IMG/VR virus record: IMGVR_UViG_3300049927_000028
Location: 1 to 44,323 of that record
Direction: 5' to 3' (one strand)
From: a virus
Length of the DNA: 44,323 bases
The translations under genes and the position numbers were made by a program. Every line of letters starts with the position of its first letter. Position 1 is the first letter of the stretch. This document shows, in pieces, positions 1-44,323 of the stretch. The notes beneath the pieces were generated by a model, which saw only the letters and a list, made by a program, of their open reading frames with translations, had not been told where the DNA came from and did not search any database.

Positions 1-127
1 GTGCGGACGATAAGGGATTGAGTTATGTTTCGGGGTCTCCTGAAGACATGATTTGGAAACTCGGTAAATGGAAAGAAGGCGGGAAGCTTCGCGGTCAGAT
101 TATGATCCAGAAACGTATTAAAGGGAT
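1..127. repeat. Left copy of an exact 127-bp terminal overlap (1-127 = 44197-44323); circular closure of a 44,196-bp genome
   Basis: Read directly: the window begins gtgcggacgataagggattgag..., and the same string starts at 44197 and runs to the last base. The repeat lies inside one open reading frame. Confidence 0.95.
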
Positions 128-896
128 TGAGATTGCGGTAGGGGGATGGTTCGGCCGTGGCGGATGGTCGAAGAATATCTGCGAAAACTTCGAAGAGAAG
201 AAGTTCATGAATGAGAATCTTGGATGCAATACCGGAGAGCAAGGAACAACTTTAAGGTATGTAGAGTATTCGAAGTTGTTCGAGCAAACTCTTGCGCCGA
301 TTACTGGATATCTACATGAAATAGGGTACGTAGGTTACGTAGACCAAAATTGCATGGTGGAGCCGAATGGAAAAGCATGGCCGTTAGAATTCACAATGCG
401 ATATGGGTATCCGCTTCGGAATATTCAGCAAATCCTCCATCAAGGGGATTCAATGGAATGGAAATTGGATCTCCTGCAAGGAAGAGATACTCTTCAGGTA
501 TCCAATAAAATAGCTTTGGGGGTTGTTATGGCGCACGGGTGCTACCCCACCGCACAACCCGATGCTCCTGAAGATGACGGAATACCTTTATATGGACTAA
601 CTCCGTCGAGGGAAAAGAATTTCTCCTTCCTAGAAGCCAGAATGGGCACTGCTCCCGTTACGGTCGGGAATACTATAAAAGAAATACCCATGGCGGTTAC
701 TGCGGGAAGTTGCTTTGGAGTAGCACTAGGTACTGGTAATACGGTATGCGAAGCACGGGAAAAAGCTTACAATATAGCATGGAAGATTAAGCCGCCTACA
801 AATGTGATGTTTCGTACGGATATAGGGTGCAGATTAGAAGAGCAACTCCCGGAACTCCAAAAAAACGGCTTCGCTACTGATATGGAGTATGAATGA
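3..896 (+). CDS. PurD-like ATP-grasp ligase, C-terminal part (continues 43773..44196 across the circular junction; 439 aa in total)
   Basis: Frame is continuous through the overlap. PurD-type landmarks NLGCNTGEQG, PLEFTMRYGYP, VVMAHGCYP and FRTDIG. Stop TGA 894-896 overlaps the next ATG (ATGA). Confidence 0.85.
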   Translation, partial: ADDKGLSYVSGSPEDMIWKLGKWKEGGKLRGQIMIQKRIKGIEIAVGGWFGRGGWSKNICENFEEKKFMNENLGCNTGEQGTTLRYVEYSKLFEQTLAPITGYLHEIGYVGYVDQNCMVEPNGKAWPLEFTMRYGYPLRNIQQILHQGDSMEWKLDLLQGRDTLQVSNKIALGVVMAHGCYPTAQPDAPEDDGIPLYGLTPSREKNFSFLEARMGTAPVTVGNTIKEIPMAVTAGSCFGVALGTGNTVCEAREKAYNIAWKIKPPTNVMFRTDIGCRLEEQLPELQKNGFATDMEYE

Positions 897-1249
897 GCCT
901 CCCCCCTAAAGGACGTGCTGACTACCTAGCCCTCGGTGACCATAATGCGGTTTGCTATGAGTGCGGCCGGAAGATGAAGGCAAGTATGCTGGTAAAGCAC
1001 TGGCAGGGGTATTATGTTTGCCCTGAGCACTGGGAGCCCCGCCACCCACAGGATTTCGTGAAGCCTGTAGCAGATGATATGAATGTCCCATGGGATCAGC
1101 CGGAACCAGCGTATGTATATGCGTCTTTCTGTGGACCTAACGACATAACTGCCATATCCGATTGGGCAGTAGCGGATTGCGCGATATCTGATTTCGTTTC
1201 CCCTTTCTTCGACCCTGATACTTTCTTCGGGGACGTAGCCCCTCAATAA
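893..1249 (+). CDS. Cys-rich zinc-ribbon protein of the tail-fibre module, function unknown
   Basis: ATGA overlap with the upstream stop. Motif CYECG...VCPEHWEPRHPQD. Sits directly in front of the tail fibre gene. Confidence 0.7.
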   Translation: MSLPPKGRADYLALGDHNAVCYECGRKMKASMLVKHWQGYYVCPEHWEPRHPQDFVKPVADDMNVPWDQPEPAYVYASFCGPNDITAISDWAVADCAISDFVSPFFDPDTFFGDVAPQ

Positions 1250-1257
1250 GGATTACC

Positions 1258-2754
1258 ATGACTAACACAACTTTTATCCCGAATACTACCCATATAGTAT
1301 CTACATGGCTGAATGATGTTAATTCAGTTGCTTATAATATATTGGGGAACGGGACGATAGTTCCCGCAACCACTGCGGCGGCGGTGCAAAATTTAGGTCA
1401 GATTCCTAATGTAGGCCGAGTTGTGATGGTTCCTACCGCGGCGGGGGTATGGCAAGTTTTCGGGCCTCAAGGACAGACGGTAAGTATATCCTCCTCTACT
1501 ACAGGCGGCCTTCAAGAAGCGATTAATGCTGCATGTACCGCAAGCGGTACAGTAGGTTATGATTTAGAAGTACATGGATGGCAGTTGCCTACCGGCGGGC
1601 CGGGGCCTGTGATAACCTGCTCAACTGCAATTACCTTCCCTGCAATGGAGAATAAGACCATTACAATTCGGGGGGTTAATATTAATTTCACCTCCGCGAT
1701 TGGGAGTACTGCCGCGATTACTTTCAATTCCATGGTATCGGTTGATTTGAATTTTAACGGGACTAATATTACGTCTTCGGGCACGGGGCCAGTGGTGAAG
1801 TTTGCCCCCACTTCTGCAACTCCCTTGACATCTACTACCGCGATAGCATCCAGTAGATCGTTTATACAATCCATATACAGCTCTACTTCGTCTGCATTGG
1901 TTTCTTATGCAACTACGTCGGGGGTGATTTCAGGCAGCTCATTTATATTCGCAGTATTGAATGGAGCATTGTCGGCAACGAATGGGGTATCAATTGTAGC
2001 GTCTACGAATGCGTTTTATAACTGTGAATTAAATTGCCTGAGTATAAAGAATATTTCCGGTATTGCCCTTATGATAGGAACTTCCGGTAACACAAATGTT
2101 ACTTGGAATACGCTCAAAGCGGGTATTTCCACTGGAACATCCTCGACTTCTGCGGTCAATGTGTGGGGCCAGAATAATAACATCATGGCGAGTATTGATA
2201 GTAGTGGGGGAGCGGGAGCTACGGGGATTGTACTAAACGCTTCTGCGGCTAAGAATATTTTCCGTGTACCTCAGAATGCGGCGACTACGGCAGTAACCGA
2301 TAGCTCCACTACCATTGACAATGAAGGTGTGTATGGGAACTCGAAGCCGCGTGCTCTGATAGCTAAGACGAATAGCCAGACTGTTTCTTCTGGGGTAGCA
2401 ACCGTATTAACCCTCGATACCCCTGTATTAAGTAGCGGGGGCGCGTGGAGTAATTCAAATAATCGATTCATTCCGGGTAGAAAAGGGTGGCTGCAAATAT
2501 CCGCCTACACTGAATGGAATGCTTGCGTGGACCAAACAGTGCTTTATATTGCTATTTATCAGAATGGGGTTTCGCTTCAACGAACGCAAATAGCCGCCTC
2601 GGGGACCGGAATACAAGGGGTATTTATCAACACCTTAGCCCTATCAGCGGCCGCGACAGACTATTTCCAAGTGGTTGTGTACCAAGCTTCGGGGACTACG
2701 CAAACAACTGTAGCGGCAACTTCATATGGATCATTTACCCTAATAGACGGGTAA
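1258..2754 (+). CDS. Tail fibre / receptor-binding protein with a C1q/TNF-like C-terminal jelly-roll
   Basis: SD aAGGAttacc-ATG. Ser/Thr/Asn/Gly-rich beta-rich body. C-terminal ~130 aa (RFIPGRKGWLQISAYTEW...YFQVVVYQ...GSFTLIDG) follows the gC1q pattern. Confidence 0.8.
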   Translation: MTNTTFIPNTTHIVSTWLNDVNSVAYNILGNGTIVPATTAAAVQNLGQIPNVGRVVMVPTAAGVWQVFGPQGQTVSISSSTTGGLQEAINAACTASGTVGYDLEVHGWQLPTGGPGPVITCSTAITFPAMENKTITIRGVNINFTSAIGSTAAITFNSMVSVDLNFNGTNITSSGTGPVVKFAPTSATPLTSTTAIASSRSFIQSIYSSTSSALVSYATTSGVISGSSFIFAVLNGALSATNGVSIVASTNAFYNCELNCLSIKNISGIALMIGTSGNTNVTWNTLKAGISTGTSSTSAVNVWGQNNNIMASIDSSGGAGATGIVLNASAAKNIFRVPQNAATTAVTDSSTTIDNEGVYGNSKPRALIAKTNSQTVSSGVATVLTLDTPVLSSGGAWSNSNNRFIPGRKGWLQISAYTEWNACVDQTVLYIAIYQNGVSLQRTQIAASGTGIQGVFINTLALSAAATDYFQVVVYQASGTTQTTVAATSYGSFTLIDG

Positions 2755-2757
2755 CCC

Positions 2758-3210
2758 ATGAAACCCCCCATGAACTACGATGGAGAGGGATTGAGGTTCA
2801 CGGCGCAGCATGAGGGCCGGAGGTATAAGGCATATAGAGATTCAGGGGGCGTGTGGACTTGTGGAAATGGGCATACGGCGGGAGTCAGCCCCAGTACTGT
2901 TTGTGATGATAAACTAGCCGATCAATGGTTGATGGAGGATACACAATCAGCAGTCAATGCGGTTAATAACCTAGTAAAAGTACCCTTGACACAGAATGAA
3001 TTTAATGCTTTAGTTGACTTTGTGTTCAATATTGGTGCTCGGGCTTTCATGAACTCTACTATGTTGATGTTATTGAATAGCGGAGATTATGCAGGGGCGG
3101 CGAACCAATTTGAACGGTGGACGTTATGTAAAGGAGTGGTAGTTGCGGGGTTACTAAATAGACGTAAAGATGAGAAAGCATTGTTTAATCAACCGGATGG
3201 AGAATCATAA
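2758..3210 (+). CDS. Endolysin, GH24 lysozyme (T4 / P22 gp19 type)
   Basis: EGLRF...AYRDSGGVWTCGNGHT (E-D-T catalytic spacing), PLTQNEFNALVDFVFNIGARAF and LLNRRKDEKALF. No N-terminal TM/SAR segment. Confidence 0.9.
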   Translation: MKPPMNYDGEGLRFTAQHEGRRYKAYRDSGGVWTCGNGHTAGVSPSTVCDDKLADQWLMEDTQSAVNAVNNLVKVPLTQNEFNALVDFVFNIGARAFMNSTMLMLLNSGDYAGAANQFERWTLCKGVVVAGLLNRRKDEKALFNQPDGES

Positions 3211-3611
3211 TGGACCCACTAACACTTATACTTGGATTAGGTACCTCAATCATAGAGAGGCTTTTTCCGGACCCTACGCAAGCGGCGGCGGCGAAGTTGA
3301 AGTTGCTGGAACTTCAGCAATCAGGGGAATTAGCTGCAATGACTTCCCAGACCGATACGAATAAAGCTGAAGGGGCAAGTTCAAGTGTGTTTGTTGCGGG
3401 CTGGCGGCCTTTTATTGGGTGGGTATGCGGGGCGGCCTGTGCTTGGAATTGGATAGGCCTACCTATAGTAAAAACATTGATAGTTATGGTAGGATATAAA
3501 CTCGCAGTGGATCAAGCGGATTTATCCCAGATGCTTCCAATTCTTATGGGGATGCTAGGGTTAGGGGGTCTACGTACTATTGAAAAGATTAACGGAGTAG
3601 CGTCGAAGTAG
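3210..3611 (+). CDS. Holin, GTA-type three-TM holin family (former DUF3154)
   Basis: TAATG coupling to the endolysin. FPDPTQAAAAKLKLLELQ...AGWRPFIGWVCGAACAW followed by further hydrophobic segments. Confidence 0.7.
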   Translation: MDPLTLILGLGTSIIERLFPDPTQAAAAKLKLLELQQSGELAAMTSQTDTNKAEGASSSVFVAGWRPFIGWVCGAACAWNWIGLPIVKTLIVMVGYKLAVDQADLSQMLPILMGMLGLGGLRTIEKINGVASK

Positions 3612-9373: not shown

Positions 9374-9569
9374 GCGTACGCTCCCATGCGGCTTCTTTGG
9401 CATACTCTTCCGCGCGGGTTCCGTCGTCGAATCCGATGTCGTAGGCTTCAATAGCTAGATCCCCAAGCAATTCTTCCAATTCCGTTTTCACCGCATCCTC
9501 GAGTTCGGAAAGAAACTGCGCTATTTTCGCTTCGGTGTGTTTTTTTGCGTAATGTGACCAGATTTCCAT
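9363..9569 (-). CDS. Hypothetical acidic protein (68 aa)
   Basis: Track ORF with SD AGGGGtcaatc-ATG. Confidence 0.6.
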   Translation of the reverse strand: MEIWSHYAKKHTEAKIAQFLSELEDAVKTELEELLGDLAIEAYDIGFDDGTRAEEYAKEAAWERTHEA

Positions 9570-23988: not shown

Positions 23989-23990
23989 CT

Positions 23991-24470
23991 ATGGTTACAA
24001 AAGAAGAGTTATGTAGGTTATTTGACTATAGAGATGGGTCTCTTTATAGGAAGATCTATACTCACGGTGGGGGCGCGGTCGGCCGTAAGGTAGGGTCTAA
24101 TCAAGGGAATGGGTATCTATCGGTGAGGGTGAATACAAAATTGTATTTGCTGCATCGACTTGTATTCCTGATGCATCATGGATACCTTCCCAATTCTATC
24201 GATCATATAGATGCCGATAAATCTAATAATAAAATAGAAAACCTTCGTGTATGCACACATTCCCAGAATGGATTTAATGCGCAGAAAAGAAAAAATAATA
24301 CGTCAGGGACTAAAGGCGTATCTTGGTCTAAAATAGCTAATAAATGGCATGCTTATATTCATATAAATAGGGTAAAAAAAGGTCTAGGGCATTTTGATTC
24401 TCTGGAGGAGGCGACTAAAGTTGCGCAAGAGGCGCGTATAAAGTATCATGGAGCCTTTGCTAGATGTTAG
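23991..24470 (+). CDS. HNH endonuclease with a C-terminal AP2 DNA-binding domain (homing-type)
   Basis: HRLVFLMHHGYLP..IDHIDADKSNNKIENLRVCTHSQN (HNH), then GVSWSKIANKWHAYIHINRVKKGLGHFDSLEEA (AP2). ATG at 23991 is preferred to the track TTG at 23985. Confidence 0.85.
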   Translation: MVTKEELCRLFDYRDGSLYRKIYTHGGGAVGRKVGSNQGNGYLSVRVNTKLYLLHRLVFLMHHGYLPNSIDHIDADKSNNKIENLRVCTHSQNGFNAQKRKNNTSGTKGVSWSKIANKWHAYIHINRVKKGLGHFDSLEEATKVAQEARIKYHGAFARC

Positions 24471-26746: not shown

Positions 26747-27225
26747 TGGTCTACGATGACTTAAATCACTTTAAAGATTGGTGGTTAAGTACTCGGGTTA
26801 TTAATTCCCCAAAAGAAGGGGCGTTACATTACCAGAAGACATCCGTAGGGTTTGTGTTGTTTCGGGAAGGCTGCTATCAAGTAGAACTATTCCTAATGAA
26901 CCCCTCCGCAACAGTCATAGATCATGTGCATCCAAACGTAGATACGTTCGAGGTCTATTTGAGCGGGGATACATTATTCAAACTACAAGGTCAACCGGCT
27001 CATAATGAACGGAAGATCGGGGACTCTATCAGGGTTGCCGAAACAACTTTTCATTCCGCTGATATCGGATCTGCTGGCGGGGCATTTCTCTCCATCCAAA
27101 AATGGTTAAACGGAGTTAAACCCACTTCAGTCACCCTTGACTGGGCGGGTTCCGATGGCAGCGCTTCATCCCAAGAAAGTAAAAGTTTTGTCGCACCTAA
27201 TATAGGAGGTAAGTACTATGGTTAA
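26746..27225 (+). CDS. Cupin-fold protein in the head module
   Basis: VIDHVHPNVDTFEVYLSGD...IRVAETTFHSAD gives HxH...D/E...H cupin metal-site spacing. Confidence 0.6.
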   Translation: MVYDDLNHFKDWWLSTRVINSPKEGALHYQKTSVGFVLFREGCYQVELFLMNPSATVIDHVHPNVDTFEVYLSGDTLFKLQGQPAHNERKIGDSIRVAETTFHSADIGSAGGAFLSIQKWLNGVKPTSVTLDWAGSDGSASSQESKSFVAPNIGGKYYG

Positions 27226-27538
27226 TACATCTGGATTGCACCCTCTCGGCCGAGCTGTTCTGGTGGCTACTTATGAAATTGAAGCGGACTACAAAGGATC
27301 GATTATTATTCCCGATGCGGCTAAAGGGCGTGATGCGATGATTGAGCAACGGGCAATCGTAATTGAAGTCGGCGAATGCGCTTGGGATGATGAAAGAACC
27401 CCCCGCGCCAAACCCGGCGACCATGTATTAGTAACCAAATTTGCGGGTTTTATGGCAATAGGAATTAACGATAAGAAGCCTTATCGGTTAATTAATGATA
27501 GGGACATTTTTGCTAGAATAGACGAGGAAGGTAAATAA
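27218..27538 (+). CDS. GroES/Cpn10-like co-chaperonin
   Basis: LHPLGRAVLV...GSIIIPDAAK...AIVIEVG...KPGDHVLVTKF...YRLINDRDIFARI follows the Cpn10 pattern along its full length. SD GGAGG. Confidence 0.8.
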   Translation: MVNTSGLHPLGRAVLVATYEIEADYKGSIIIPDAAKGRDAMIEQRAIVIEVGECAWDDERTPRAKPGDHVLVTKFAGFMAIGINDKKPYRLINDRDIFARIDEEGK

Positions 27539-30508: not shown

Positions 30509-31213
30509 ATGTCTACATGTTCCGTAAAAGGTTGTGGTAAGGAAATGCAAGCTAAGGGCTTGTGCGGTATGCATAGGATGAGGTTATTAAGGCATGGTGA
30601 CCTTAACACGTCTAGACCGTCTGACTGGGGGAAGAAAGAGAAACATCCTTTATACGGAGCTTGGCGTGAATTTTTTCGTAAGCATAATAAATCATGTTGC
30701 ATTGAATGGAAAGATTTTTGGGTTTTTGTGTCTGATGTAGGGGTCCGTCCTTCCACAGCTCATGTATTAGGTCGATTGGACGATTCCGCCCCTGCGTCTA
30801 AAAGTAACTTCGTATGGAGAGAGAAAATTGTATGTAAAGAAGCTTCCGAAACAAGCAAGGAGTACAGCGCACGGTACCAAAGGGAGTATAGGAAACTGCA
30901 CCCAGAAAGGGTTAAAGCTACGGAAAACAAACGAAGATATGGTCTAGCGTCAGTTGAGTACAATCGGATGGCAGACCTTCAAGCTGGATTGTGTCTTATA
31001 TGCAAACGACCCGAACGTTCTTTAGATAAAACATCAGGGCAGCCTAGGTCCCTGTACGTGGATCATTGCCATACTACGGGAAAGATTAGAGGTCTTTTAT
31101 GTACTAATTGTAATCAAGGTATCGGATCTTTCTTCGACTCTCCCGAAATATTACTAGCAGCAATACGATATTTAGAGGATAATAGTAAAAGCACTAATAA
31201 GGCTACGGTCTAG
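30509..31213 (+). CDS. Endonuclease VII-type HNH endonuclease with an N-terminal Cys-rich domain
   Basis: GLCLICKRP...LYVDHCHTTGKIRGLLCTNCNQGIGSF (Endonuclease_7 signature). N-terminus CSVKGCGKEMQAKGLCGMHRMR. Confidence 0.85.
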   Translation: MSTCSVKGCGKEMQAKGLCGMHRMRLLRHGDLNTSRPSDWGKKEKHPLYGAWREFFRKHNKSCCIEWKDFWVFVSDVGVRPSTAHVLGRLDDSAPASKSNFVWREKIVCKEASETSKEYSARYQREYRKLHPERVKATENKRRYGLASVEYNRMADLQAGLCLICKRPERSLDKTSGQPRSLYVDHCHTTGKIRGLLCTNCNQGIGSFFDSPEILLAAIRYLEDNSKSTNKATV

Positions 31214-33622: not shown

Positions 33623-33847
33623 ATGGAAGATTCAGAATTGTTTCTCATGATAGGCAAGTTTGAGGCGAAGATCGAATCCCTAGAGCATTCTCTAGATAAA
33701 TTAGAGAAGTGTGTTGTATCGCTTACGGAAGCTATGGCAGATAACAAGGGGAGTTGGAGAGTTCTAGTTTCCCTTGCTGCCGTATCCTCCCTTCTAGGGG
33801 CTTTCGCCCACAAACCAATTGATATTATTTTAGGTCTTTTTAAATGA
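33623..33847 (+). CDS. Coiled-coil protein with a C-terminal TM helix (DUF1515-like, 74 aa)
   Basis: SD AAGGAGactatc-ATG. KFEAKIESLEHSLDKLEKCVVSLTEAMADNKG then WRVLVSLAAVSSLLGAFA. Confidence 0.55.
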   Translation: MEDSELFLMIGKFEAKIESLEHSLDKLEKCVVSLTEAMADNKGSWRVLVSLAAVSSLLGAFAHKPIDIILGLFK

Positions 33848-34560
33848 CTACTCCAACTAATTTCAATACCCCCGCGCGATGCATAGAATATGCGATGAAG
33901 GATGCGGGATTGCTCCAGCACGGGGATTCTCCGGACAGCGAGCATTATGCAGAATATGGGAATAGACTAGTTGATTTGATTAATTTATTCCAGACTCAGG
34001 GATTGAAGCTTTGGTTGAATCAGGATCTATCCATAGCCCTCACTCAGGGTACCAGTCTATATACTTTAGGTCTTACTGGTACTTTGTATATGATAAAACC
34101 AACTCGGGTCATACAAGCTTATTTTAATGATGTTAATGGAATAACCCGCCCTCTTATGATGATATCTCGGGATGAATGGTCTCGGTTGGCTAATCGCTCT
34201 CAGCAAGGGGCAATAAATTCTGTGTTCGTAGACAAGCAACAAGATTATCTTGGGATAAATCTATGGATGACTCCTGATGCTAATTCAGCTTTAGGTACTC
34301 TTCATTTGATTATACAAAATCAAGTAACCCAGTTTTCTGGCCTCACTGATACGATTAACTTCCCCACTGAATGGTTTATGGCGCTCCGCTGGGGATTGGC
34401 GGATGATATCGCAGGAGGGCAGCCTGAAGCCATCATGGCAAGATGCGCACAGAAAGCCAATACCTTCCGTGATGCGCTGGAAAACTGGGACGTGGAAGAC
34501 GCGGCTACGCAATTCCAACCCGATCCGAATACAGGAAGGAACACTGGGGGGTTTAGATAA
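33844..34560 (+). CDS. Head-to-tail adaptor, P22 gp4-like (with an insertion)
   Basis: ATGA coupling. The N-terminal helix pair (CIEYAMKDAGLL...YGNRLVDLINLFQTQG) and C-terminal WFMALRWGLADDIAG resemble the gp4-type tail accessory factor. Recalled from memory. Confidence 0.45.
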   Translation: MTTPTNFNTPARCIEYAMKDAGLLQHGDSPDSEHYAEYGNRLVDLINLFQTQGLKLWLNQDLSIALTQGTSLYTLGLTGTLYMIKPTRVIQAYFNDVNGITRPLMMISRDEWSRLANRSQQGAINSVFVDKQQDYLGINLWMTPDANSALGTLHLIIQNQVTQFSGLTDTINFPTEWFMALRWGLADDIAGGQPEAIMARCAQKANTFRDALENWDVEDAATQFQPDPNTGRNTGGFR

Positions 34561-35966
34561 TGCCCGGTAAAGTCCCGCTTCCCCTTCGAGTCCCATTAGC
34601 TACCGCCCCCGAGAACCGGGGATACACCACAGCTAAGGACGCTAAGCTGATAAATTGTTACCTCGAGACAGTTACTCCCGGGGACTATCAGGTTATTAAA
34701 CGCCCCGGAATTAGCCCGAATATTATCTCTACCTACCCTGCTAATAACTTCGGCGGGATACTCTCGTTTGCGGGGGTTACTTACGTAATCGCGGGAGGGT
34801 ATTTCTATGTGAACACGACGTTGATTGGGAATGTCAATACCACGGGGGGTAGATATTGGTTTTCCGTAATCAAAGGCGCTATACCAAAGATTGTGTTTTC
34901 CAACACAACTAATATGTATTTTTATGACAGTATTGATGGGCTTGTGGGGGCGGGTAGTGTCTCGGCCCCTCCTAGCGTTATGGTTCCCGGATTCGCTTAT
35001 CTAGACGCAACGTTATATGTCTTAACTCCTGATGCCCATATCTTCGGTTCCGGTTTGAATGACGTAACAAATTGGGCTATTACGAATGTGATCGTAGCCC
35101 AGATTGAACCTGATGATGCAATTGCCATAGCAAAGCAGCTAGTTTATGTCATTGTGTTTAAGCAATGGTCTACAGAAGTTTTCTACGATCAAGGTAATGC
35201 GGCAGGTAGTCCTTTAGGTCCGAATCAAGCTGCTAAGATGAATTATGGTTGCGTGAATGGGGCGTCTGTTTTGGATATTGACGGGGATCTTTTTTGGGTG
35301 TCGTCGACGAGATCCGCTACTTCACAAGTAATGATGATGCGGAATTTATCCCCTTTGGTCATATCAAATTCCCATATCGAGAGATTACTTCAAGCATCCA
35401 ATCTCCAACCGACAAACTTGAATAATATGTACGTTTGGAATTATAAAGGAGAGGGTCATAATTTTTATGTATTGACCCTAATTGATGCTAACCTAACCCT
35501 CGCGTATGATATAAGAGAGCAGACTTGGTGCCAATGGACTGACCCAAATGGAAATTATGTTCCTGTTTTAGCATCTACGTTTTCCGGTAGTAACGAAGTA
35601 ATTTTCCACCAAAACGGAAATACCTACTTAATGAATGCAGGAATTTACATGGATGTAGGAGTTCCGTTTTCAGTGGATCTTTATACCCCGAATTTCGATG
35701 GGGGGGTTGATAGGAGAAAGGTACTGACACGGATAAGATTTCTGGGAGATCAAACTCCCGGATGTGTACTAAAGGTCAGATGTAATGACCAAGATTACAA
35801 TCCACTCAAGTGGACTAACTTTCGTACGGTTGATATGAATAAGCAAAGACCGTTTTTAGATAATTGTGGGACGTTCTATAGAAGATCCTATCACATTAAC
35901 TTCACAGGAAACGCTCCGATGCGGCTTAGGGGACTAGATGTTGACATGGATCTAGGTTCCCTATGA
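34560..35966 (+). CDS. Tail hub / packaged-DNA stabilisation protein, P22 gp10-like
   Basis: 468 aa (P22 gp10 is about 470 aa). TAATG coupling to the gp4-like gene. DAKLINCYLE...IKRPG start and a repetitive beta-propeller-like body. Confidence 0.5.
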   Translation: MPGKVPLPLRVPLATAPENRGYTTAKDAKLINCYLETVTPGDYQVIKRPGISPNIISTYPANNFGGILSFAGVTYVIAGGYFYVNTTLIGNVNTTGGRYWFSVIKGAIPKIVFSNTTNMYFYDSIDGLVGAGSVSAPPSVMVPGFAYLDATLYVLTPDAHIFGSGLNDVTNWAITNVIVAQIEPDDAIAIAKQLVYVIVFKQWSTEVFYDQGNAAGSPLGPNQAAKMNYGCVNGASVLDIDGDLFWVSSTRSATSQVMMMRNLSPLVISNSHIERLLQASNLQPTNLNNMYVWNYKGEGHNFYVLTLIDANLTLAYDIREQTWCQWTDPNGNYVPVLASTFSGSNEVIFHQNGNTYLMNAGIYMDVGVPFSVDLYTPNFDGGVDRRKVLTRIRFLGDQTPGCVLKVRCNDQDYNPLKWTNFRTVDMNKQRPFLDNCGTFYRRSYHINFTGNAPMRLRGLDVDMDLGSL

Positions 35967-37516: not shown

Positions 37517-37891
37517 ATGGCAGCGAACAAAGCAATACGACTAGGGCCAGTAGCCCTCACAACGACCGCAGCGACTAACGTATGGAACCCCCCGACTACT
37601 ACCGGCGGTGTGGGAACCGGTACGACGAATACGAATACTTATTACATTATTCGGCATATTCGGGCGACGAATACAACCGGCACTGCGGCGACGGTAACTA
37701 TTAACGTAGGTACTACAGGGATAGTGACACTTCCATCTGTAATGGCATGGTATCAAACAACTGTCCCCGCGAACTCAGCCATTGATTGGTATGGGGCATT
37801 ACGACTAGATGTAGCGGATTTCCTCGTCGCGTCTTCTCAAACTACCGCCGCCATTACGCTCACTGCGGACGCTGAAATAGGACTAGCATAA
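37517..37891 (+). CDS. Hypothetical Thr-rich beta protein (124 aa)
   Basis: SD AAAGGAGaacatc-ATG and TAATG coupling downstream. Confidence 0.6.
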   Translation: MAANKAIRLGPVALTTTAATNVWNPPTTTGGVGTGTTNTNTYYIIRHIRATNTTGTAATVTINVGTTGIVTLPSVMAWYQTTVPANSAIDWYGALRLDVADFLVASSQTTAAITLTADAEIGLA

Positions 37892-38346
37892 TGATTGAGT
37901 TTAAGACGCTGACTGTCTCGGCTATGCGGGGTTTCGGGGAAGATTTACTAGAAGCTCATTACCAAGAATTAACACTTCATAAGGAAGTAGTTAAATTGAA
38001 TGTGGATTGGGAAAAGTATTCTCTTATGGAGAAACGGGGAATGCTTATGTCGATAGGGGTTTTTGAAGATTCAATCTTAGTAGGGTATTCTGTATTCATA
38101 TTAGCGGATCATGCGCATTATAAAGATATGCTGGTTGCTTCTAATGACGTTTTGTTTCTCCGGGAAGATAAACGAAAAGGCTCCTTGGGAGTCCGGCTTG
38201 TTAGGGAAAGTGAAGCCCGATTGCACGCAAAAGGAGTGACTAAAATCCTCTGGCATTGTAAGTACGGAACTGTTCTAGGGAAGCTTCTAAAGCACATGGG
38301 TTATGTGAACGAAGAATTCACTATGGGTAAAATACTAGGGAGTTGA
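37891..38346 (+). CDS. GNAT-like N-acetyltransferase
   Basis: ILVGYSVFIL...DVLFLREDKRKGSLGVRLVRESEARLHAKGVTKILWH...LLKHMGY fits the GNAT beta4-alpha3-beta5 core. The motif A spacing is slightly atypical. Confidence 0.55.
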   Translation: MIEFKTLTVSAMRGFGEDLLEAHYQELTLHKEVVKLNVDWEKYSLMEKRGMLMSIGVFEDSILVGYSVFILADHAHYKDMLVASNDVLFLREDKRKGSLGVRLVRESEARLHAKGVTKILWHCKYGTVLGKLLKHMGYVNEEFTMGKILGS

Positions 38347-38348
38347 TC

Positions 38349-39062
38349 ATGGGTATATCAGCGGTGGTTGGGGGGATAGCTAGTGCGGTATCTACGGTAG
38401 CTCCTATTGTGTCAGGCGGGATGGCTATTGCGAATGCGGTAGGCGGCGGTAGTGGCGGTAGTGGCGGGGGCGGAGGTGGTGGGAGCCCTACAACTGCGGG
38501 TAGTCCAGTGGCTACTGCCGCCCCCTTCGCGCAATACCAACCTATGTATGGCCAGCAATTGAATGAGTTAATGTCTGGAGTTTATGGTGGGCAGGGTAAC
38601 GCTGCCCTCGCTAAAATGCCGGGATACCAAGCGGGGCTGGATGCGGTTCAGCGCGCAGGTGCGGCGCAAGGATTTACAGGTTCCGGAAATATGGAGAATG
38701 CATTACTTCAATATGGAGGTAATATATTTAACCAACAATTATCCACCTTAGAGCTTTTGTCCGGCGCGGGGATTAACCCCGGAACAGCGGGGCAGCTTCA
38801 ACAAAGCGGCACTCAAGCGAATACTCAATTAATGGGACAGGGGATTAATTCTCTTGCTTATGGGGCGCAGACGGCTGCGAATGCTTTCAATTCTCCTTCC
38901 TCGTCTTCATCCTATTTCGGAGGTACTACCGGAGATACGTCCCCCGCTAATTACACTACCGTAGGCTCCGGAACTTCTGGTATTTATGATGCAGGTTCCA
39001 GTTCGATAGGATCGTCTGGTTATAGCGATGGTTTCGGCGGAACGTATAACTTTGGCGGATAG
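38349..39062 (+). CDS. Gly/Ser/Gln-rich internal virion (ejection) protein with an N-terminal hydrophobic segment
   Basis: ATG at 38349 behind GGGAGttgatc (the track TTG is at 38343). GISAVVGGIASAVSTVAPIV then GGGSGGSGGGGGGGS. Position equals the P22 ejection genes. Confidence 0.5.
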   Translation: MGISAVVGGIASAVSTVAPIVSGGMAIANAVGGGSGGSGGGGGGGSPTTAGSPVATAAPFAQYQPMYGQQLNELMSGVYGGQGNAALAKMPGYQAGLDAVQRAGAAQGFTGSGNMENALLQYGGNIFNQQLSTLELLSGAGINPGTAGQLQQSGTQANTQLMGQGINSLAYGAQTAANAFNSPSSSSSYFGGTTGDTSPANYTTVGSGTSGIYDAGSSSIGSSGYSDGFGGTYNFGG

Positions 39063-39070
39063 GAGACATC

Positions 39071-40192
39071 ATGGCTGACTTCAGTATGTATGGTCCCTCT
39101 CAAGGGGGCGCTCGTTTAGCAATAAACGATATGCAACAGCAGCAGATGAATGATATTTCCATTCAAGAAGGTCAACAGAAAGTAGAAGAAGGTAAGGGAA
39201 AGCTTCTGGATCAACAGCAAGCTCGGGTACAGTCACAACAAATTCAAGCGAAACAGCAGCAAGACCAAGCGACACAATTGGATATACTTCAGCGCGATCA
39301 AGCCGCATCACTTACCGACATCGGCACTGATATGATAAAAGCGGGATTAGTGGAGCAGGGGAGTAAGTTACTAACCGTAGCAGCTAATGCTGGGGAAAAG
39401 ATAGCATTAGGGGATAGGGCAAAAGCGGACGCTTCCCTAAAGCAGACGGAAGATAAATTAAAACAAATTGATATGTTCACGGCGAATGTCGAGAATTCCC
39501 ATAGTCAAGCGGACTGGGATAGAAATGTCCAACGGGCGGAACAGATTTACGGTAAGGAGGCTCCGCCGTTCTTCAAGAATGCCGTGTGGTCTCCCGAGAT
39601 GAAAGAACAGATGAAATCGTTAGGCTCCACTTGGAAAGAACGTAATACATTGGAGTTGGGGAAACAGAAGGCGGCTGCGGCAGAGGCGGAAAGAGCCTCG
39701 AGGGAAAAACTTCGTTCTATACAAGCGGAAAAAGAAAAAGCCCAGACGAAGGAAATAGAAGCGCGGACTACGAAGATTGAAAAGAACGATGGGGTGAATT
39801 CTGCGTCGAAGCCGAATACGCAGTTATTGAAATCTGCGGAAGCTATGATTAAGTCAGAGCGTCCGGATATGTCGTCTACGGAAAGGGCTAACACAGCAGC
39901 TTATGTAACTAGTCAAGCACAAGCAGCGTTGCAGAAAAACAAAGCTCTAGATTGGGAAACTGCGTTGAATCAAGAATATGGGAAGATAAAGAAAGATATT
40001 AAAACGGAGTCTACTTTCTGGGGCCTTGGTAAAGATGTAGTGAAATTCGATCGCCCTAAAGATAAAGCTACCCCGGCCCCCAAAGGAACTAATTTTAATT
40101 CCGGTGCCGATGCTGATATAGCTGCCCAAAAAGGACTCATTAAAAAAGGTGATAGAATCGTAGTGAATGGTGTTTCCGGGACTTGGCAATAA
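39071..40192 (+). CDS. Gln/Lys/Glu-rich coiled-coil internal virion (ejection) protein
   Basis: SD TAGGAGacatc-ATG. 373 aa of low-complexity helical sequence. Confidence 0.5.
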   Translation: MADFSMYGPSQGGARLAINDMQQQQMNDISIQEGQQKVEEGKGKLLDQQQARVQSQQIQAKQQQDQATQLDILQRDQAASLTDIGTDMIKAGLVEQGSKLLTVAANAGEKIALGDRAKADASLKQTEDKLKQIDMFTANVENSHSQADWDRNVQRAEQIYGKEAPPFFKNAVWSPEMKEQMKSLGSTWKERNTLELGKQKAAAAEAERASREKLRSIQAEKEKAQTKEIEARTTKIEKNDGVNSASKPNTQLLKSAEAMIKSERPDMSSTERANTAAYVTSQAQAALQKNKALDWETALNQEYGKIKKDIKTESTFWGLGKDVVKFDRPKDKATPAPKGTNFNSGADADIAAQKGLIKKGDRIVVNGVSGTWQ

Positions 40193-43100
40193 TGCCGTTC
40201 GTACCCGACGCGGATCAATCAGCGGGACAAGCGTCCCCGCCACCAGGAGCTTCCATAGGTAAATTTGTACCGGATGTGAAACAACCGGCTATTCAACAGG
40301 CTTCTACTGGTAATTCCAATATCGATAAATTCAAAACGGATTATGCTTCTGCGGCGGCTAAAGCAGGGAAAGAACTCAATGTAGACCCTTCTCTTATCCT
40401 CGCTCAATGGGGGCATGAAACTGGTTGGGGGAAGAGTATTATCCCCGGCACCAATAACCTCGGAAATATAAAAGGAAAAGGTGGTGTAGAAGCTACCGAT
40501 AACCAACTGGGTACAAAAGATACTTATGCGAAGTATAAAGATAACGAAGAATTCGTGAATAAGTATGTTGATTTAATTAAGTCTAGATATCCGTCCGCAA
40601 TGGGAGCAGGGAAGGATGCGGGGAAATTTACGTCCGGATTAAAAGGGTACGCGGAAGATAAGGAATATGCTAAGAAGGTATCGGCAGCTGCGGGTAGGGT
40701 AGGAGAGGTCTCGCAAGCAGAGGAATTGAAATCCCAAGATACCACTAAAAAAACAGCACCTTCCGGGCCTATAGTAGATGGGGGAGAGAAAAAACCGGAT
40801 GGGATGCTGATAGCCACTGCAAAGAATCTAGTTGCCGGAGCGGATATCATAGCCAGTACTCCGGGGGCTATGTTAGGTCCACTCGCCTCCGCTACAGGCC
40901 GCTGGGTAGCTATCGCTCAAGGCGCTCAAGGGGAAGATATATCTAAATTCGGTTCTGAGTTTGGCAATAAGATATCCGAGAATTTATCCAGTCCAATACA
41001 CAAGATGTTAGATGTGTTGGGAGTGGATTTTAGTTACACCGAATCGGGCGTGTCGAAAGCAATGGGTAAGGTGTCTGAAGCTGTAGGTAAAGGGGCGGAA
41101 TATGTACAGAAGAAATCGGGCGGAGTGCTGACGAAAGAAGATGCCCAAGACTTAACTAATGCGGTCGCATTATTGGCTGCCCCCGCTAGTATTAATATGG
41201 CCTCGAAGGCCCTGCTTGGAGCAGGGAGGGCTGCGAAAGCAATCGGAACAGCAGGGAAGCCGGTTGAAGAAGCAGTTCTCAGGGAAGTCGATAGCGGAGC
41301 GCCCTCTGCCCCAGCAGCAAAATCTACTCCAGTTTCTCTAGCCAAGCAGCACATAGAAGAGACTACGGGCATTAGTAAGATGAAAGAAGAGACTCCGCAG
41401 TATAAAGAGCAGCGCAGGGCAGATGCTAGAGCCGCCTTCCCGGAAGACCCTCAATACGCCGAGTATTTAAAATCTCACTCCGATATGGCCGCCGTAGCGA
41501 AAGATACCCCTAATGTAGTGGGGATGCAGAAAATTGAACTTCAAGAAGCAGGAAAAGCAGCACGGGGGGAGGTGGTTGAAAAACCCGTCGTCACCTATCA
41601 AGATGCGTTACCAATACTAAAGAAGCCCGGATTCGAACGTACAGCAGAAGACTTGATTAAGCTGAAAGCATTCAATAGTCAAAGAGGTTCCGTAGAACCC
41701 GAAATGCTAGCTAAGATGGCGACTATTGGAATTGGCGTTACTGCGGGACTAGCCCTTGACCCTGACCATAAATTAGAAGGCGCGTTACTCGGGGCAGCAG
41801 GAGGTTATGCAGTAGCAAAGATCGGGTTTAAAGCAGGGGATTCGGTAAAGACGGTGAAAGAATTCTTCGGGCCGGATAAACGGATTCGCATAAATGATTT
41901 CGCTGATCATTGGGAATCCTCAATTGGGAAAGCTAGCCGATCTATTTATCAAGACGTGTCTAAGGTTATGGATAAGGCGAAGACCCCTGAGAGCCGGACT
42001 AAGATAACTAATTGGATTCAAGGGGATAAGTCCATCAAGCTGACGGAGGCAGAATACCAAGCAGCGAAAGATGGTCGGGAGTTCTTTAATAATATGGGGA
42101 AGGAAGGGTTAGCTTCCGGAGTTCTTACGCATTTAATCCCAGATTATGTAACTAACCTATGGGATTTAGAAGGTTCCAATAAAGCAGTCTGGACAAAGAC
42201 TACTTCTAATATGTCACCGAAGTCTAAGTTCGACCTGCAAAGAAAAATATCCTCGTTAAAAGAAGGTAAGGAAATGGGGTTGAAGCCTGTAACAGAAGAC
42301 CTTGCAGTGATTATGGGTATGTATGGAAATTCTCTTTCCAGAACTATGGCGAATAAGCAATTGATTGATACGTTAAAATCCACAAAAGTGGGGGAGAATT
42401 CCCTTTTAGCCTCTTCGGGGGAAGCTCCTAAGAATTATGTTCCGGTTGACCACCCGCAATTGCAAGGGCAAATGGTTCATCCTGACATTGCTAAGTCAAT
42501 GCAGTTTATGTTTTCCCGTAAAGCGCCTCATGGAATTATCGCTGGGTTGGAGGGGGTGAATACGGCAGTGAAAAGATTGAATGTATCTCTTTCATTATTC
42601 CATGCTAAGTCTTTGGCGGATGCTTTTGTAGGAGCTGGTGGAAATCCTTTACGTATCCCCGGAATGGCAACCGGAGCGAATAAGTTCCTCAAACAAATAC
42701 GCGAGGGCGGTGCGGGGGATATCGTGGATAAGGCATATGAAGGGGGATTAATGTTCACTCTCCCGAAAGGGGGTTTAGCGGTTGAAGATGTTGGAGGGTC
42801 TTTCTATAAGACCATGGAGGGTTTGCATAAAATATCCAACGATATAGTTCCCGGATTAGGGGTTTTAGTTAAGGGGTTTGAACACCTTAACCATGCAGTG
42901 GACACTATTATGTGGGAACGCCTTCACGCAGGGATGAAATTAAATATTTTTTCCGATTCTTTTGAGAAGTTAAAGCAGAATAATATAGATGCTAATGCAA
43001 AGGATTCCACAGTCCCCCTGAAAACTGACAAACAATTATCAGGGATAGCTGCAAGCTATGCTAACGATCTTTTTGGGGGTTTGAATTGGAGACGGGCGGC

Positions 43101-43776
43101 GGAAGAAACCAAGACAGTTTTCGCGCGGGATATTGCTCTAAGTATAGCAAGCCCGACAGGCCGCCGGGCAATGCAAATGTTAATGTTCGCCCCAGATTGG
43201 ACAATATCAACTACCCGAGCCGCGGTGAAAGCATTCGGGAAAGGATCGGGATTGAAGGGGCTAATTAAACCGCAAGAATTAGCGGATCTACACAGACAGT
43301 ATTTATTGAGAAGCGCCGCCTATTACTTCACTGTAGGTAATGCTTTGAACTATGCTCTATCGGGGCATTCTATATTACAGAATAAAGATAAGACTCAATT
43401 AGAACTTGGTGATGGTAGGACTATACAATTCTCCAAGCACATGATGGAGCCGGTGCACTGGATTACAAAGCCGGGTCAACAAGCATTGAATAAACTAGGC
43501 GCTTTCCCTCAAGAAGCAATCGAACAAGCGTCGAATACGGAGTATTTATCTACTAAGGGTTCCCCCCCTATGGCTCCCGGGGTATCCGGTCATGCGCGGC
43601 ATATGTTAAAGAAATTAGTGCCTATTGTTGCACAAGGGAGAGATTTACAATCTAACGTTGCCGGATTCGCCGGATTCCCAATAAGCGGCCGCACAGAAGA
43701 TCAGAAAGAAGAAGATAAAGAAACTGCACGGGAACAACGCCGAAAACTCAAGGAAGAAAAAGAGGACAGCGAATGA
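40192..43776 (+). CDS. Large internal virion / ejection protein with an N-terminal FlgJ-like glucosaminidase (peptidoglycan hydrolase) domain
   Basis: ATG at 40192 forms TAATG with the upstream stop. LILAQWGHETGWGKS...NNLGNIKG...YAKYKDNEEFVNKYVDLIKSRY. 1194 aa from this ATG. Confidence 0.85.
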   Translation: MPFVPDADQSAGQASPPPGASIGKFVPDVKQPAIQQASTGNSNIDKFKTDYASAAAKAGKELNVDPSLILAQWGHETGWGKSIIPGTNNLGNIKGKGGVEATDNQLGTKDTYAKYKDNEEFVNKYVDLIKSRYPSAMGAGKDAGKFTSGLKGYAEDKEYAKKVSAAAGRVGEVSQAEELKSQDTTKKTAPSGPIVDGGEKKPDGMLIATAKNLVAGADIIASTPGAMLGPLASATGRWVAIAQGAQGEDISKFGSEFGNKISENLSSPIHKMLDVLGVDFSYTESGVSKAMGKVSEAVGKGAEYVQKKSGGVLTKEDAQDLTNAVALLAAPASINMASKALLGAGRAAKAIGTAGKPVEEAVLREVDSGAPSAPAAKSTPVSLAKQHIEETTGISKMKEETPQYKEQRRADARAAFPEDPQYAEYLKSHSDMAAVAKDTPNVVGMQKIELQEAGKAARGEVVEKPVVTYQDALPILKKPGFERTAEDLIKLKAFNSQRGSVEPEMLAKMATIGIGVTAGLALDPDHKLEGALLGAAGGYAVAKIGFKAGDSVKTVKEFFGPDKRIRINDFADHWESSIGKASRSIYQDVSKVMDKAKTPESRTKITNWIQGDKSIKLTEAEYQAAKDGREFFNNMGKEGLASGVLTHLIPDYVTNLWDLEGSNKAVWTKTTSNMSPKSKFDLQRKISSLKEGKEMGLKPVTEDLAVIMGMYGNSLSRTMANKQLIDTLKSTKVGENSLLASSGEAPKNYVPVDHPQLQGQMVHPDIAKSMQFMFSRKAPHGIIAGLEGVNTAVKRLNVSLSLFHAKSLADAFVGAGGNPLRIPGMATGANKFLKQIREGGAGDIVDKAYEGGLMFTLPKGGLAVEDVGGSFYKTMEGLHKISNDIVPGLGVLVKGFEHLNHAVDTIMWERLHAGMKLNIFSDSFEKLKQNNIDANAKDSTVPLKTDKQLSGIAASYANDLFGGLNWRRAAEETKTVFARDIALSIASPTGRRAMQMLMFAPDWTISTTRAAVKAFGKGSGLKGLIKPQELADLHRQYLLRSAAYYFTVGNALNYALSGHSILQNKDKTQLELGDGRTIQFSKHMMEPVHWITKPGQQALNKLGAFPQEAIEQASNTEYLSTKGSPPMAPGVSGHARHMLKKLVPIVAQGRDLQSNVAGFAGFPISGRTEDQKEEDKETAREQRRKLKEEKEDSE

Positions 43777-44323
43777 ATATCTTAATGATCGATCAATACG
43801 GAATTCTCGTATCCCAAGCCCTCGATGCGATTGCCGACGGGCATAAGGTTAAATCTTGGATGCCGAGGACAAAATTCCAGAAGCCCTCGAAAATCGGAGA
43901 TGGAATGGTGGATAAAGTCCGTGATTGGCATTCCCATATTCACTGGGCGGATTTGATTATTACCGCAACGAATCAGAAGTATATGAGGGAAATAACCCCC
44001 CTATTCACTAAAGGGTATCCAGTGTTTGGATGTAACCCGAAAGCAGCGGAGTTGGAACTTGATCGTGGGCATGGGCAGGAGATATGCTCGGCTTATGGGA
44101 TTGATACCCTTCCATATGAACTATTCTCTTCTTATGACGACGCGGCGGCGTACGTTAAAAAAACTATGGGAACGTATGTCTGCAAACCATGGGGAGGTGC
44201 GGACGATAAGGGATTGAGTTATGTTTCGGGGTCTCCTGAAGACATGATTTGGAAACTCGGTAAATGGAAAGAAGGCGGGAAGCTTCGCGGTCAGATTATG
44301 ATCCAGAAACGTATTAAAGGGAT
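43773..44323 (+). CDS. PurD-like ATP-grasp ligase, N-terminal part (runs off the window end; continues at 3..896)
   Basis: ATGA overlap with the ejection-protein stop. MNILMIDQYG... N-domain and VCKPWGGADDKG ATP-grasp loop. No stop before the window end. Confidence 0.85.
   Translation, partial: MNILMIDQYGILVSQALDAIADGHKVKSWMPRTKFQKPSKIGDGMVDKVRDWHSHIHWADLIITATNQKYMREITPLFTKGYPVFGCNPKAAELELDRGHGQEICSAYGIDTLPYELFSSYDDAAAYVKKTMGTYVCKPWGGADDKGLSYVSGSPEDMIWKLGKWKEGGKLRGQIMIQKRIKG
44197..44323. repeat. Right copy of the exact 127-bp terminal overlap
   Basis: Identical to 1-127 by direct reading. Confidence 0.95.

Follow-up and report, generated by a model that had tools for sequence, protein, structure and literature searches.

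A PurD-like family of predicted ATP-grasp ligases encoded behind the ejection genes of podoviruses and on archaeal and bacterial chromosomes

Glycinamide ribonucleotide (GAR) synthetase, or PurD (EC 6.3.4.13), known from the structures of the E. coli (1GSO), Aquifex (2YW2), and human (GARS, 2QK4) enzymes, is the nearest described relative of a 439-residue protein encoded in the late operon of the virus record IMGVR_UViG_3300049927_000028 from IMG/VR, whose 44,323 nucleotides are here referred to as the window. In PurD, ATP is held by K103, K143, E185, E192, and K214 and glycine by D212, R287, and E292 (PMC8880213); in human numbering, glycine is held by D217, R292, D295, and E297 and the phosphate of phosphoribosylamine (PRA) by R13, R292, and R385 (PMC2978367). 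The viral protein shares with PurD the four-domain fold (TM ~0.7), the ATP-binding Lys/Glu, the E-x-x-K/R motif, the NTG..G loop, the E...R..G.P strand, and the C-terminal R-x-D-I-G motif, but differs by an extra conserved C-terminal tail and by the lack of any pur gene context.

The only description of comparable proteins that we found in the literature concerns the 'extra' PurD-like proteins rrnAC0307 and Hlac_1553 of two haloarchaea, in which GARS_N, the Mg-site residues, and the motif Asp are missing and the N-terminal loop diverges, and which the authors did not accept as GAR synthetases (Brown et al. 2011, PMC3261824). Compared by description only, the viral protein shares the first three of these defects, whereas the haloarchaeal proteins are chromosomal and archaeal, and no link of theirs to viruses has been reported. 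PurK, PurT, and biotin carboxylase are second-tier fold matches with a shared acyl-/carboxy-phosphate chemistry, but they are more distant than PurD and lack the NTG..G and R-x-D-I-G motifs. Protein-modifying ATP-grasp ligases are a known enzyme category, and RimK, LysX/LysW, and the tubulin tyrosine ligase (TTL) family belong to the same superfamily and perform the ATP-dependent amide-forming chemistry predicted for the viral protein, but fall into other ATP-grasp clades; as models for an enzyme gene placed next to structural genes they are appealing. The upstream and downstream proteins examined showed neither a conserved acidic tail nor a carrier protein as partner. On the virion side, the internal virion protein (IVP) modules of podoviruses open with an acetyltransferase-family gene (T7 gp13/IVP-A) and close with a muralytic large IVP-D, and IVPs have been proposed to deliver passenger enzymatic domains to the cytoplasm (Hardies et al., PMC4819975). 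The PurD-like gene lies in the same operon as such enzymes, directly after the muralytic IVP-D and in a block headed by a GNAT gene, but its product is a separate polypeptide, dispensable and not fused, unlike the passenger domains; in the literature searched, no ATP-grasp enzyme was found in podovirus IVP modules.

Bases 44197-44323 of the window are an exact copy of bases 1-127, and this 127-nucleotide terminal repeat indicates a complete circular (or circularly assembled) genome with a unique length of 44,196 bp and a GC content of 45.6%, so that features at the ends are read across the junction. Read in this way, positions 43773..44196 joined to 1..896 on the plus strand form an uninterrupted open reading frame (ORF) of 1,320 nucleotides and 439 codons, the 5′ part (43773..44323, in which 44197-44323 repeats 1-127) encoding residues 1-141 up to base 44196 and the 3′ part (1..896) residues 142-439 and the stop. 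The predicted product is a compact 48-kDa four-domain α/β enzyme. Upstream, the gene is coupled by an ATGA start/stop overlap (43773..43776) to a 1,197-residue ORF of IVP-D type (40183..43776, plus strand), in which a Pfam scan places a glucosaminidase domain (PF01832) at the N-terminus, as fits an ejection or internal virion protein; downstream, a second ATGA overlap (893..896) joins it to a 118-residue Cys-rich ORF with a CxxC...CxxH motif (893..1249, plus strand), hereafter the Zn-ribbon ORF. A GAGGA Shine-Dalgarno, read from the sequence, stands at 43762..43766, 6 nucleotides upstream of the ATG and within the end of the upstream gene. An earlier interpretation made from the letters alone, the sequence-only reading, had described this ORF across the circular junction, both overlaps, the co-translation with the late ejection genes, and two altered PurD motifs, and all of this is confirmed: LGCNTGEQG (residues 215-223) aligns to GPNTGGMG and MRYGYPL (residues 274-280) to R[LF]GDPE. 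The corresponding codons lie on the plus strand at 228..245 for N218-T-G-E221-Q-G223, the counterpart of the PurD NTGGMG loop at the ATP phosphates, and at 387..413 for E271-F-T273-M-R275-Y-G-Y278-P279, the counterpart of E-F-N-x-R-F-G-D-P; the codon of Lys138, the invariant ATP-phosphate lysine (K143 in Aquifex PurD), occupies 44184..44186.

The 439-residue protein is homologous to PurD, far beyond chance, and displays the PurD fold, yet it is no member of the PurD family. The AlphaFold2 model, built from an alignment of 117 homologues, reaches a mean predicted local distance difference test score of 94.9 and a predicted TM score of 0.92. When it is compared with the PDB by Foldseek, GAR synthetases fill the first 15 places, with alignments that span the whole protein, E-values from 2e-28 to 1e-22, and TMq of 0.67-0.74, and a second tier of PurK, PurT, and biotin carboxylase (E ~1e-17, TM ~0.57-0.63) begins with PurK and biotin carboxylase at 5e-18, ten orders behind PurD; the model and these matches together disclose the complete N-B-A-C four-domain architecture of PurD. 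At the sequence level, the match to Aquifex PurD (PDB code, 2yw2) has an E-value of 1.3e-16, and identity to canonical PurD is 20-23%. Family membership was examined with TIGR00877, the PurD equivalog profile, against which the protein scores 72 bits (E = 3.9e-20), below the curated cutoff of 288 bits, with an alignment covering only profile positions 86-422 and leaving the first 85 unaligned. As controls, Salmonella PurD scores 619 bits, other members of the family of the viral protein 95-113 bits, and its cellular subfamily, described below, 108-113 bits. Pfam GARS_A is detected at 31 bits, just above threshold, GARS_C at 27 bits, below its cutoff, and GARS_N gives no match in the 439-residue protein, for which no PHROGs family was found either. 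A viral structural counterpart was sought in BFVD and rejected, the best match, TTL and ATP-grasp entries included, having a TM of at most 0.45.

The active site was compared residue by residue through a HMMER alignment to Aquifex PurD (2yw2) plus MAFFT, with roles taken from the literature (PMC8880213, PMC2978367). In this alignment the ATP and phosphoryl-transfer set is retained (Aquifex → viral protein): K103→R98, K143→K138, the B-loop K151→K146, E185→Q178, E192→E185, K214→K208, E100→E95, E283→E271, and R287→R275. The elements that define an ATP-grasp enzyme, namely a Lys pair at the phosphates, a Glu or Gln at the adenine/ribose, an acidic metal ligand, and an Arg at the acyl-phosphate, are thus all present. 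The substrate side is altered at several positions, including (i) the N-terminal GxGGREH loop bearing a PRA-phosphate Arg, which is replaced by IDQYGILV with no Arg; (ii) the TSGGR(V) segment of the C-domain, which reads VTAGSC, so that the second PRA-phosphate Arg is lost; (iii) the glycine ligands, with Asp212 replaced by E206 and Arg287 kept as R275; and (iv) the PROSITE pattern PS00184, R-[LF]-G-D-P-E, in which Asp and Glu hold glycine and the amine of PRA and which here reads R275-Y-G-Y278-P-L280, with the family consensus R-x-G-(W/Y)-P-x, so that two of the four glycine ligands are lost through the change of D to W/Y at 278 and of E to a variable residue at 280. Closer to the nucleotide, the near-universal Asn of the E-x-N metal-ligand pair gives way to a Thr that never varies across the family (E271-F-T273), and in the NTGGMG loop, positioned at the ATP phosphates, E221 takes the place of the second Gly and is likewise invariant. 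The family-invariant replacements at the metal/γ-phosphate site comprise N→T273, G→E221, and G→N258, and their invariance speaks for a remodelled site and not for decay. The proposal of the sequence-only reading that the full PurD architecture is combined with changed substrate-binding positions is in this way borne out by both the fold and the residue mapping.

The protein belongs to a distinct large family, which we name PurD-like 2, in which the signature changes are fixed and not phage-specific. Across 117 homologues with 45-73% identity, the invariant positions comprise E95, R98, K138, Q178, E185, E206, K208, E221, G223, T224, E271, T273, R275, G277, P279, R413, and D415, and the ATP-contacting residues, the B-loop Lys, E271, and R275 remain invariant in more than 300 sequences down to 28% identity. 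A search of 1.84 billion cluster representatives, taken at 50% identity clustering, returned 1,540 clusters at E ≤ 1e-3, 686 at ≤ 1e-10, and 167 at ≤ 1e-30; NTGE(M/Q)GT, LEFTxRxG(W/Y)P, and RTDIG occur in the best 150 of them, to 28% identity, wherever the fragment covers the region. Strong purifying selection across a very large family is thereby shown. The two motif changes that the sequence-only reading had singled out are consequently real but not peculiar to this phage, being the fixed signature of a very large family with archaeal and bacterial members.

As a rule, inteins occupy the catalytic motifs under the tightest constraint, in proteins that are not easily lost. Among 268 retrieved members of the family, 17 carry one (P0123, P0127, P0132, P0133, P0137, P0141, P0153, P0162, P0170, P0181, P0184, P0204, P0211, P0222, P0228, P0242, and P0245), 16 of them of ~320-360 residues and one a mini-intein of 149 residues, with Cys1, a C-terminal (H/G)(N/Q), a Thr, Ser, or Cys at +1, and, in most cases, LAGLIDADG_3 domains. 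The insertions occupy three sites, N218|T219, G223|T224, and T273|x274 (window nucleotides 230|231, 245|246, and 395|396), all within the two signature loops: two flank the NTGE loop and the third follows T273. Phage-type and cellular-type members are hit alike, and the window copy is intein-free. The presence of inteins in both loops gives circumstantial support to the view that these form a working active site under selection; no report of inteins in PurD-type genes was found in the literature.

The cellular relatives were collected from GTDB with one genome per species, and the 142 loci recovered fall into two tiers. Tier 1 (34-59% identity) comprises phage-type loci, among them copies that lie amid hub, GNAT, and IVP genes on chromosomal contigs of large size from cultured Paraburkholderia rhynchosiae, P. 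tropica, P. phenoliruptrix, further Paraburkholderia spp., Burkholderia semiarida, Glaciimonas immobilis, and a Rhodanobacteraceae strain; these copies (L167, L168, L169, L176-L178, L182, L184, and L186) are probable prophages, and their carriers point to Burkholderiales and other Proteobacteria as hosts. Tier 2 (30-33% identity; loci L188-L253, proteins P0269-P0388) is a tight subfamily distinguished by VNFEHK, GPSTGEMGT, PLE[FW]TTRFGYPTI, and RTDIG, with more than 6,900 members at E ≤ 1e-20, which the databases name purD or 'GARS C domain-containing protein'. Its members are 75-80% identical across Nanoarchaeota, Woesearchaeota, Aenigmarchaeota, Micrarchaeota, phyla of the candidate phyla radiation (CPR), Planctomycetota, and Spirochaetes, a level of conservation far above expectation for a gene common to several domains, which suggests either that it spread horizontally, widely and not long ago, or that it is under extreme constraint. 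The chromosomes that carry them measure up to 1.8 Mb, with genes for ribosomal proteins, eIF-6, TruD, superoxide dismutase, DAHP synthase, LpxD, and others as neighbours, and the Pfam-annotated neighbourhoods examined contained neither phage nor pur genes and showed no conservation of an operon.

In a tree rooted on canonical PurD, a single long stem leads to the split between a phage/prophage clade and a clade with the cellular cluster. The entire remodelled site is common to phage and cellular members, and so are features that PurD does not have, namely G44, W52, and W58-A-D60 in the N-terminal part and a C-terminal extension (L427, G431). According to the literature, most DPANN archaea lack de novo purine synthesis and some Woesearchaeota have near-complete pathways; the cellular distribution is compatible with a role outside purine synthesis and is no proof of it. 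A link with polyamines was considered and set aside, as an Orn/Arg decarboxylase gene is adjacent in only 4 of 66 loci, too rarely for a functional link. In detail, an Orn/Arg decarboxylase gene and an ATP-grasp_4 gene stand beside the PurD-like gene in L244 and L246, and L253 displays an agmatinase-family gene, an Orn/Arg decarboxylase gene, and a deoxyhypusine synthase gene in the same position.

Among viruses, at least 575 IMG/VR loci matched a first profile of the family and 499 a second one. In the clade of the window, which comprises 84 loci, the gene always lies on the late strand, 3′ of the genes for the adaptor, the hub, the Gly-rich protein, and a large protein of ~500-1,730 residues, and it directly follows the IVP-D gene in all 79 loci with a called upstream ORF, 43 of which show the ATGA overlap. 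The next gene varies: 30 of 66 loci have the Zn-ribbon ORF, and in the others lysozyme/holin or a different ORF follows or the operon ends there; in MW202796 the Zn-ribbon homologue lies 8 kb from the PurD-like gene and adjoins fibre genes. This variation makes the IVP-D-type protein, and not the Zn-ribbon/fibre pair, the constant neighbour. The sequence-only reading had placed the gene between the ejection protein and that pair, but the gene is not linked to the pair, since the Zn-ribbon ORF tracks the fibre and is present in relatives without the ligase. More distant lineages place the gene (i) directly 5′ of GroES and the portal (L255), (ii) flanked by a virion structural protein gene and by a block whose last member is an internal virion protein of 1,068 residues (L261), and (iii) between capsid genes and a virion structural protein, adjoining a small muralytic ORF (L331).

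The gene is not required for this virion type. In a survey anchored on the hub protein and limited to the 27 relatives with enough downstream sequence, the gene was present in 16 and missing in 11, with hub identities to the window that are similar in both groups (36-50%). The ligase-negative relatives preserve the module otherwise, with an IVP-D of 711-1,979 residues followed directly by the Zn-ribbon ORF. In the hub-protein tree, presence and absence are interleaved and the positives hold the deepest branches, which suggests ancestral presence followed by repeated loss or exchange. The nearest cultured relative, Alcaligenes phage vB_Af_QDWS535 (portal 41% identical), displays the GNAT gene, two further proteins, a protein of 1,190 residues, and a lysozyme, without the ligase. 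A phage collection queried with three family members contained the gene in no cultured phage; only the uncultured MW202796 matched, the other matches being at the level of canonical purD (20-26% identity). No fusion between an IVP and the PurD-like protein was seen among the 268 retrieved proteins or in the ~180 phage-type loci inspected; P0154 (745 residues) carries a Gly/Ala-rich N-terminal extension that probably reflects an ORF called too long on a contig of high GC. The IVP-D-type proteins of the relatives vary from ~500 to 1,980 residues, and the 1,495-residue IVP-D of L004 (5517-10004) has a faint match to ART-PolyVal, an ADP-ribosyltransferase domain; size range and match together suggest variable passenger domains.

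Taken as a whole, with a probability of about 60%, the protein would be an active accessory carboxylate-amine ligase that works in the producing cell late in infection and is not a structural component. As judged from sequence and predicted fold, the ORF would encode a catalytically competent ATP-grasp enzyme, descended from PurD but forming its own family, in which a small carboxylate held by R275 and E206 may be converted to an acyl-phosphate and passed to a non-phosphorylated amine, so that no glycinamide ribonucleotide would be made. Because the chromosomal homologues of archaea and bacteria share the remodelled site and the N-domain signature, the substrate is most likely a metabolite or component also present in cells rather than a phage-specific protein, and the occurrence of the two-motif signature on chromosomes likewise makes a virion-specific substrate the less likely choice. 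In the clade of the window, the gene would have been acquired once at the 3′ end of the IVP (ejection) operon and then inherited vertically with repeated loss, its co-translation with the large IVP-D being secured by the ATGA overlap and its own Shine-Dalgarno; the need for ATP would place its action, accessory in character, in the cytoplasm. Three points weigh against this interpretation: the change of Asn to Thr at the canonical E-x-N metal site is unusual for an ATP-grasp enzyme and could impair catalysis; the gene stands in differing positions in at least four phage lineages, always within the structural cluster, which fits a virion-linked role better than a metabolic one; and the case for an enzyme that stays out of the capsid draws only on dispensability, the globular enzyme fold, and the cellular homologues.

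The second of these points is the best argument for a different view, unlikely in our estimate but the foremost of the alternatives, in which the ligase would be packaged in the capsid with the IVPs, perhaps by binding IVP-D, ejected into the cytoplasm of the next host, and supplied there with host ATP to modify a conserved host molecule at the outset of infection, for takeover or anti-defence. It would account for the position immediately downstream of IVP-D in all 79 clade loci, whatever follows the ligase, with the ATGA overlap in 43, and for the renewed appearance of the gene beside virion structural or internal virion proteins in other lineages; the patchy presence resembles that of passenger domains, the length range of IVP-D (500-1,980 residues) and the single faint ART-PolyVal match point the same way, and cytoplasmic delivery of enzymatic domains by IVPs has been proposed (PMC4819975). 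A host-generic target would also explain the cellular homologues. On the other hand, no IVP fusion appears in the 268 proteins or the ~180 phage-type loci, no cultured phage with the gene was found in the phage collection, a compact 48-kDa α/β enzyme is unlike the helical or disordered IVPs, and a single ancestral insertion suffices to explain the conserved synteny. A somewhat less likely specific form would be a 'pilot' enzyme, the first of the ATP-grasp type, in which PurD-like 2 is loaded with the ejection proteins, injected with the DNA, and covalently modifies a conserved molecule of the cell as soon as infection begins; the chromosomal copies of host-dependent DPANN archaea and CPR bacteria would then act on that molecule by an identical reaction. 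The sequence-only reading had pointed to a virion or ejected protein as a possible target, and such a modification is conceivable; improbable, in our view, is that a ligase would act on such a protein in the producing cell before assembly, adding an amino acid to Glu/Asp or to the C-terminus or forming an isopeptide in the manner of RimK, LysX, TTL, and the microviridin ligases. Coupling to IVP-D within the structural operon and the GNAT-fold gene at the head of the same block would suit such a role, but close relatives build the module without the gene, and cellular homologues with the identical signature occur where the phage proteins are absent. Two candidate partners were rejected. The acidic C-terminus of the upstream protein, which ends ...KEEKEDSE in the window and could recall the substrates of RimK, TTL, and LysX, is not a common feature, as 58 non-redundant upstream proteins share neither motif nor charge, and the bias for Q, E, P, or K at their last residue follows from the NNA codon imposed by the ATGA overlap. 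The Zn-ribbon ORF is no LysW-like partner, as it goes with the fibre gene, comes next after the ligase in no more than 30 of 66 loci, stands directly after IVP-D in ligase-negative relatives, precedes the fibre gene in QDWS535, and is 8 kb off in MW202796.

Two further explanations we hold to be very improbable, and they concern the chemistry itself. A true, if divergent, GAR synthetase that raises purine production in the host, i.e., an ordinary auxiliary metabolic gene (AMG), would agree with PurD being the nearest family by both sequence and fold, with the name phosphoribosylamine--glycine ligase given to many members by JGI and NCBI, and with the listing of phage purD as a purine AMG in a virome study (PMC11097641). 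Yet the protein reaches 72 bits against an equivalog cutoff of 288, and the Asp and Glu of R[LF]GDPE, both PRA-phosphate Arg residues, and the Asn of E-x-N are all replaced. PRA is very unstable, with a half-life of ~5 s at 37 °C, and its direct transfer from PurF has been suggested (PMC2978367); neither purF nor any other pur gene accompanies the ligase: no purine-pathway family was detected by Pfam in the 30 larger ORFs of the window, the small ORFs having been scanned only in part, or in the Pfam-annotated neighbourhoods of the phage relatives L002-L004. The gene further lies in the late structural cluster and not among replication or nucleotide genes, and archaeal proteins with the same defects were rejected as GAR synthetases (PMC3261824). 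The absence of companion pur genes noted by the sequence-only reading, and its conclusion that this is not an ordinary purD AMG, therefore stand, since the PRA- and glycine-binding residues are not all kept and the homologues do not constantly co-occur with pur genes. The opposite extreme, equally improbable, would be a pseudoenzyme that uses the PurD fold without catalysis as a scaffold, chaperone, or binding protein in assembly; the replacement of the metal-ligand Asn by Thr and of the proposed catalytic-base Asp by an aromatic residue would favour it, as would the location in the structural cluster, but the ATP residues, the B-loop Lys, E271, and R275 do not vary in more than 300 sequences, the replacements T273, E221, and N258 are themselves invariant, inteins target the same loops, and the cellular members are extremely conserved.

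The existence of this family affects several fields. By the sequence criteria tested, thousands of viral and cellular genes automatically annotated as purD, or counted as AMGs, are not GAR synthetases, and metabolic reconstructions of phages, DPANN, and CPR organisms that count them as purD are probably wrong. For enzymology, a PurD-derived site has been coherently remodelled, kept from Burkholderiales phages to nano-sized archaea, and hit by inteins, which marks an important reaction. For phage biology, an optional gene in the structural/ejection operons of several podovirus lineages follows a pattern typical of host-tuning enzymes. The class of chemistry is known, but the family, its signature, its inteins, its place in the operon, and its cross-domain sister group appear to be undescribed, and the chromosomal copies in culturable Paraburkholderia, Burkholderia, and Glaciimonas make the question testable.

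The genomic setting is that of a podovirus. The replication module lies on the minus strand and comprises a DUF3987 primase/helicase-like protein, UDG-PolA, AAA_24, and a PD-(D/E)XK nuclease, and the plus strand forms one long late operon that runs from the terminase through lysis, in the order (i) large terminase, HNH-AP2 endonuclease, SU10-type portal, GroES, scaffold and capsid, Endonuclease_7 ORF, and adaptor; (ii) hub of the P22-gp10/'Phage_stabilise' type, collagen-like fibre, GNAT-fold ORF, Gly-rich protein, and coiled-coil protein; and (iii) the 1,197-residue glucosaminidase protein, the PurD-like ORF, the Cys-rich (Zn-ribbon) ORF, a 498-residue fibre candidate, lysozyme, and holin. 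The PurD-like gene thus shares an operon with the IVPs, in the stretch bounded by the tail hub and the fibre genes; this order is repeated in related loci, and the layout of the block is exactly that of the podovirus IVP modules of Hardies et al. (PMC4819975). The head-tail adaptor (33844..34560), of the SU10_adaptor type in relatives, is followed by the tail hub or head-closure protein (34560..35966), the anchor of the presence/absence survey. The ejection block is headed by the GNAT acetyltransferase-fold ORF in the IVP-A position (37891..38346; phrog_1249) and continues with the Gly-rich ORF of 239 residues, which is kept in relatives (38343..39062), and a Gln/Lys-rich ORF of 373 residues that is probably a coiled coil (39071..40192). 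Beyond the Zn-ribbon ORF, the 498-residue ORF (1258..2754) is a putative tail fibre or spike by its position and by weak homologues in relatives, with no family match, and the lysis cassette that ends the late operon (2758..3611) comprises a Phage_lysozyme (2758-3210) and a holin with three transmembrane segments (3210-3611), all of these features lying on the plus strand.

Some further features of the window are of interest in their own right. Two free-standing endonuclease ORFs in the late operon, one with HNH_3 and AP2 domains between terminase and portal (23985-24470, plus strand) and one of the Endonuclease_7 type directly 3′ of the major capsid gene (30509-31213, plus strand), are probably selfish elements of the homing type. 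A GroES (Cpn10) gene adjoins the portal in the head module (27218-27538, plus strand), is found also in L006 (3531-3872) and L255 (1470-1775), and is kept across the whole phage group, Alcaligenes phage QDWS535 included. In the early region, a minus-strand ORF (8759-9451) combines Asp/Arg β-hydroxylase and Cupin_2 domains and resembles a 2-oxoglutarate oxygenase, and a second one of 237 residues (16988-17701, minus strand), with no family match, begins with a signal-peptide-like segment, MKLGILLAALVLPLSASA, and may be a secreted or outer-membrane protein.

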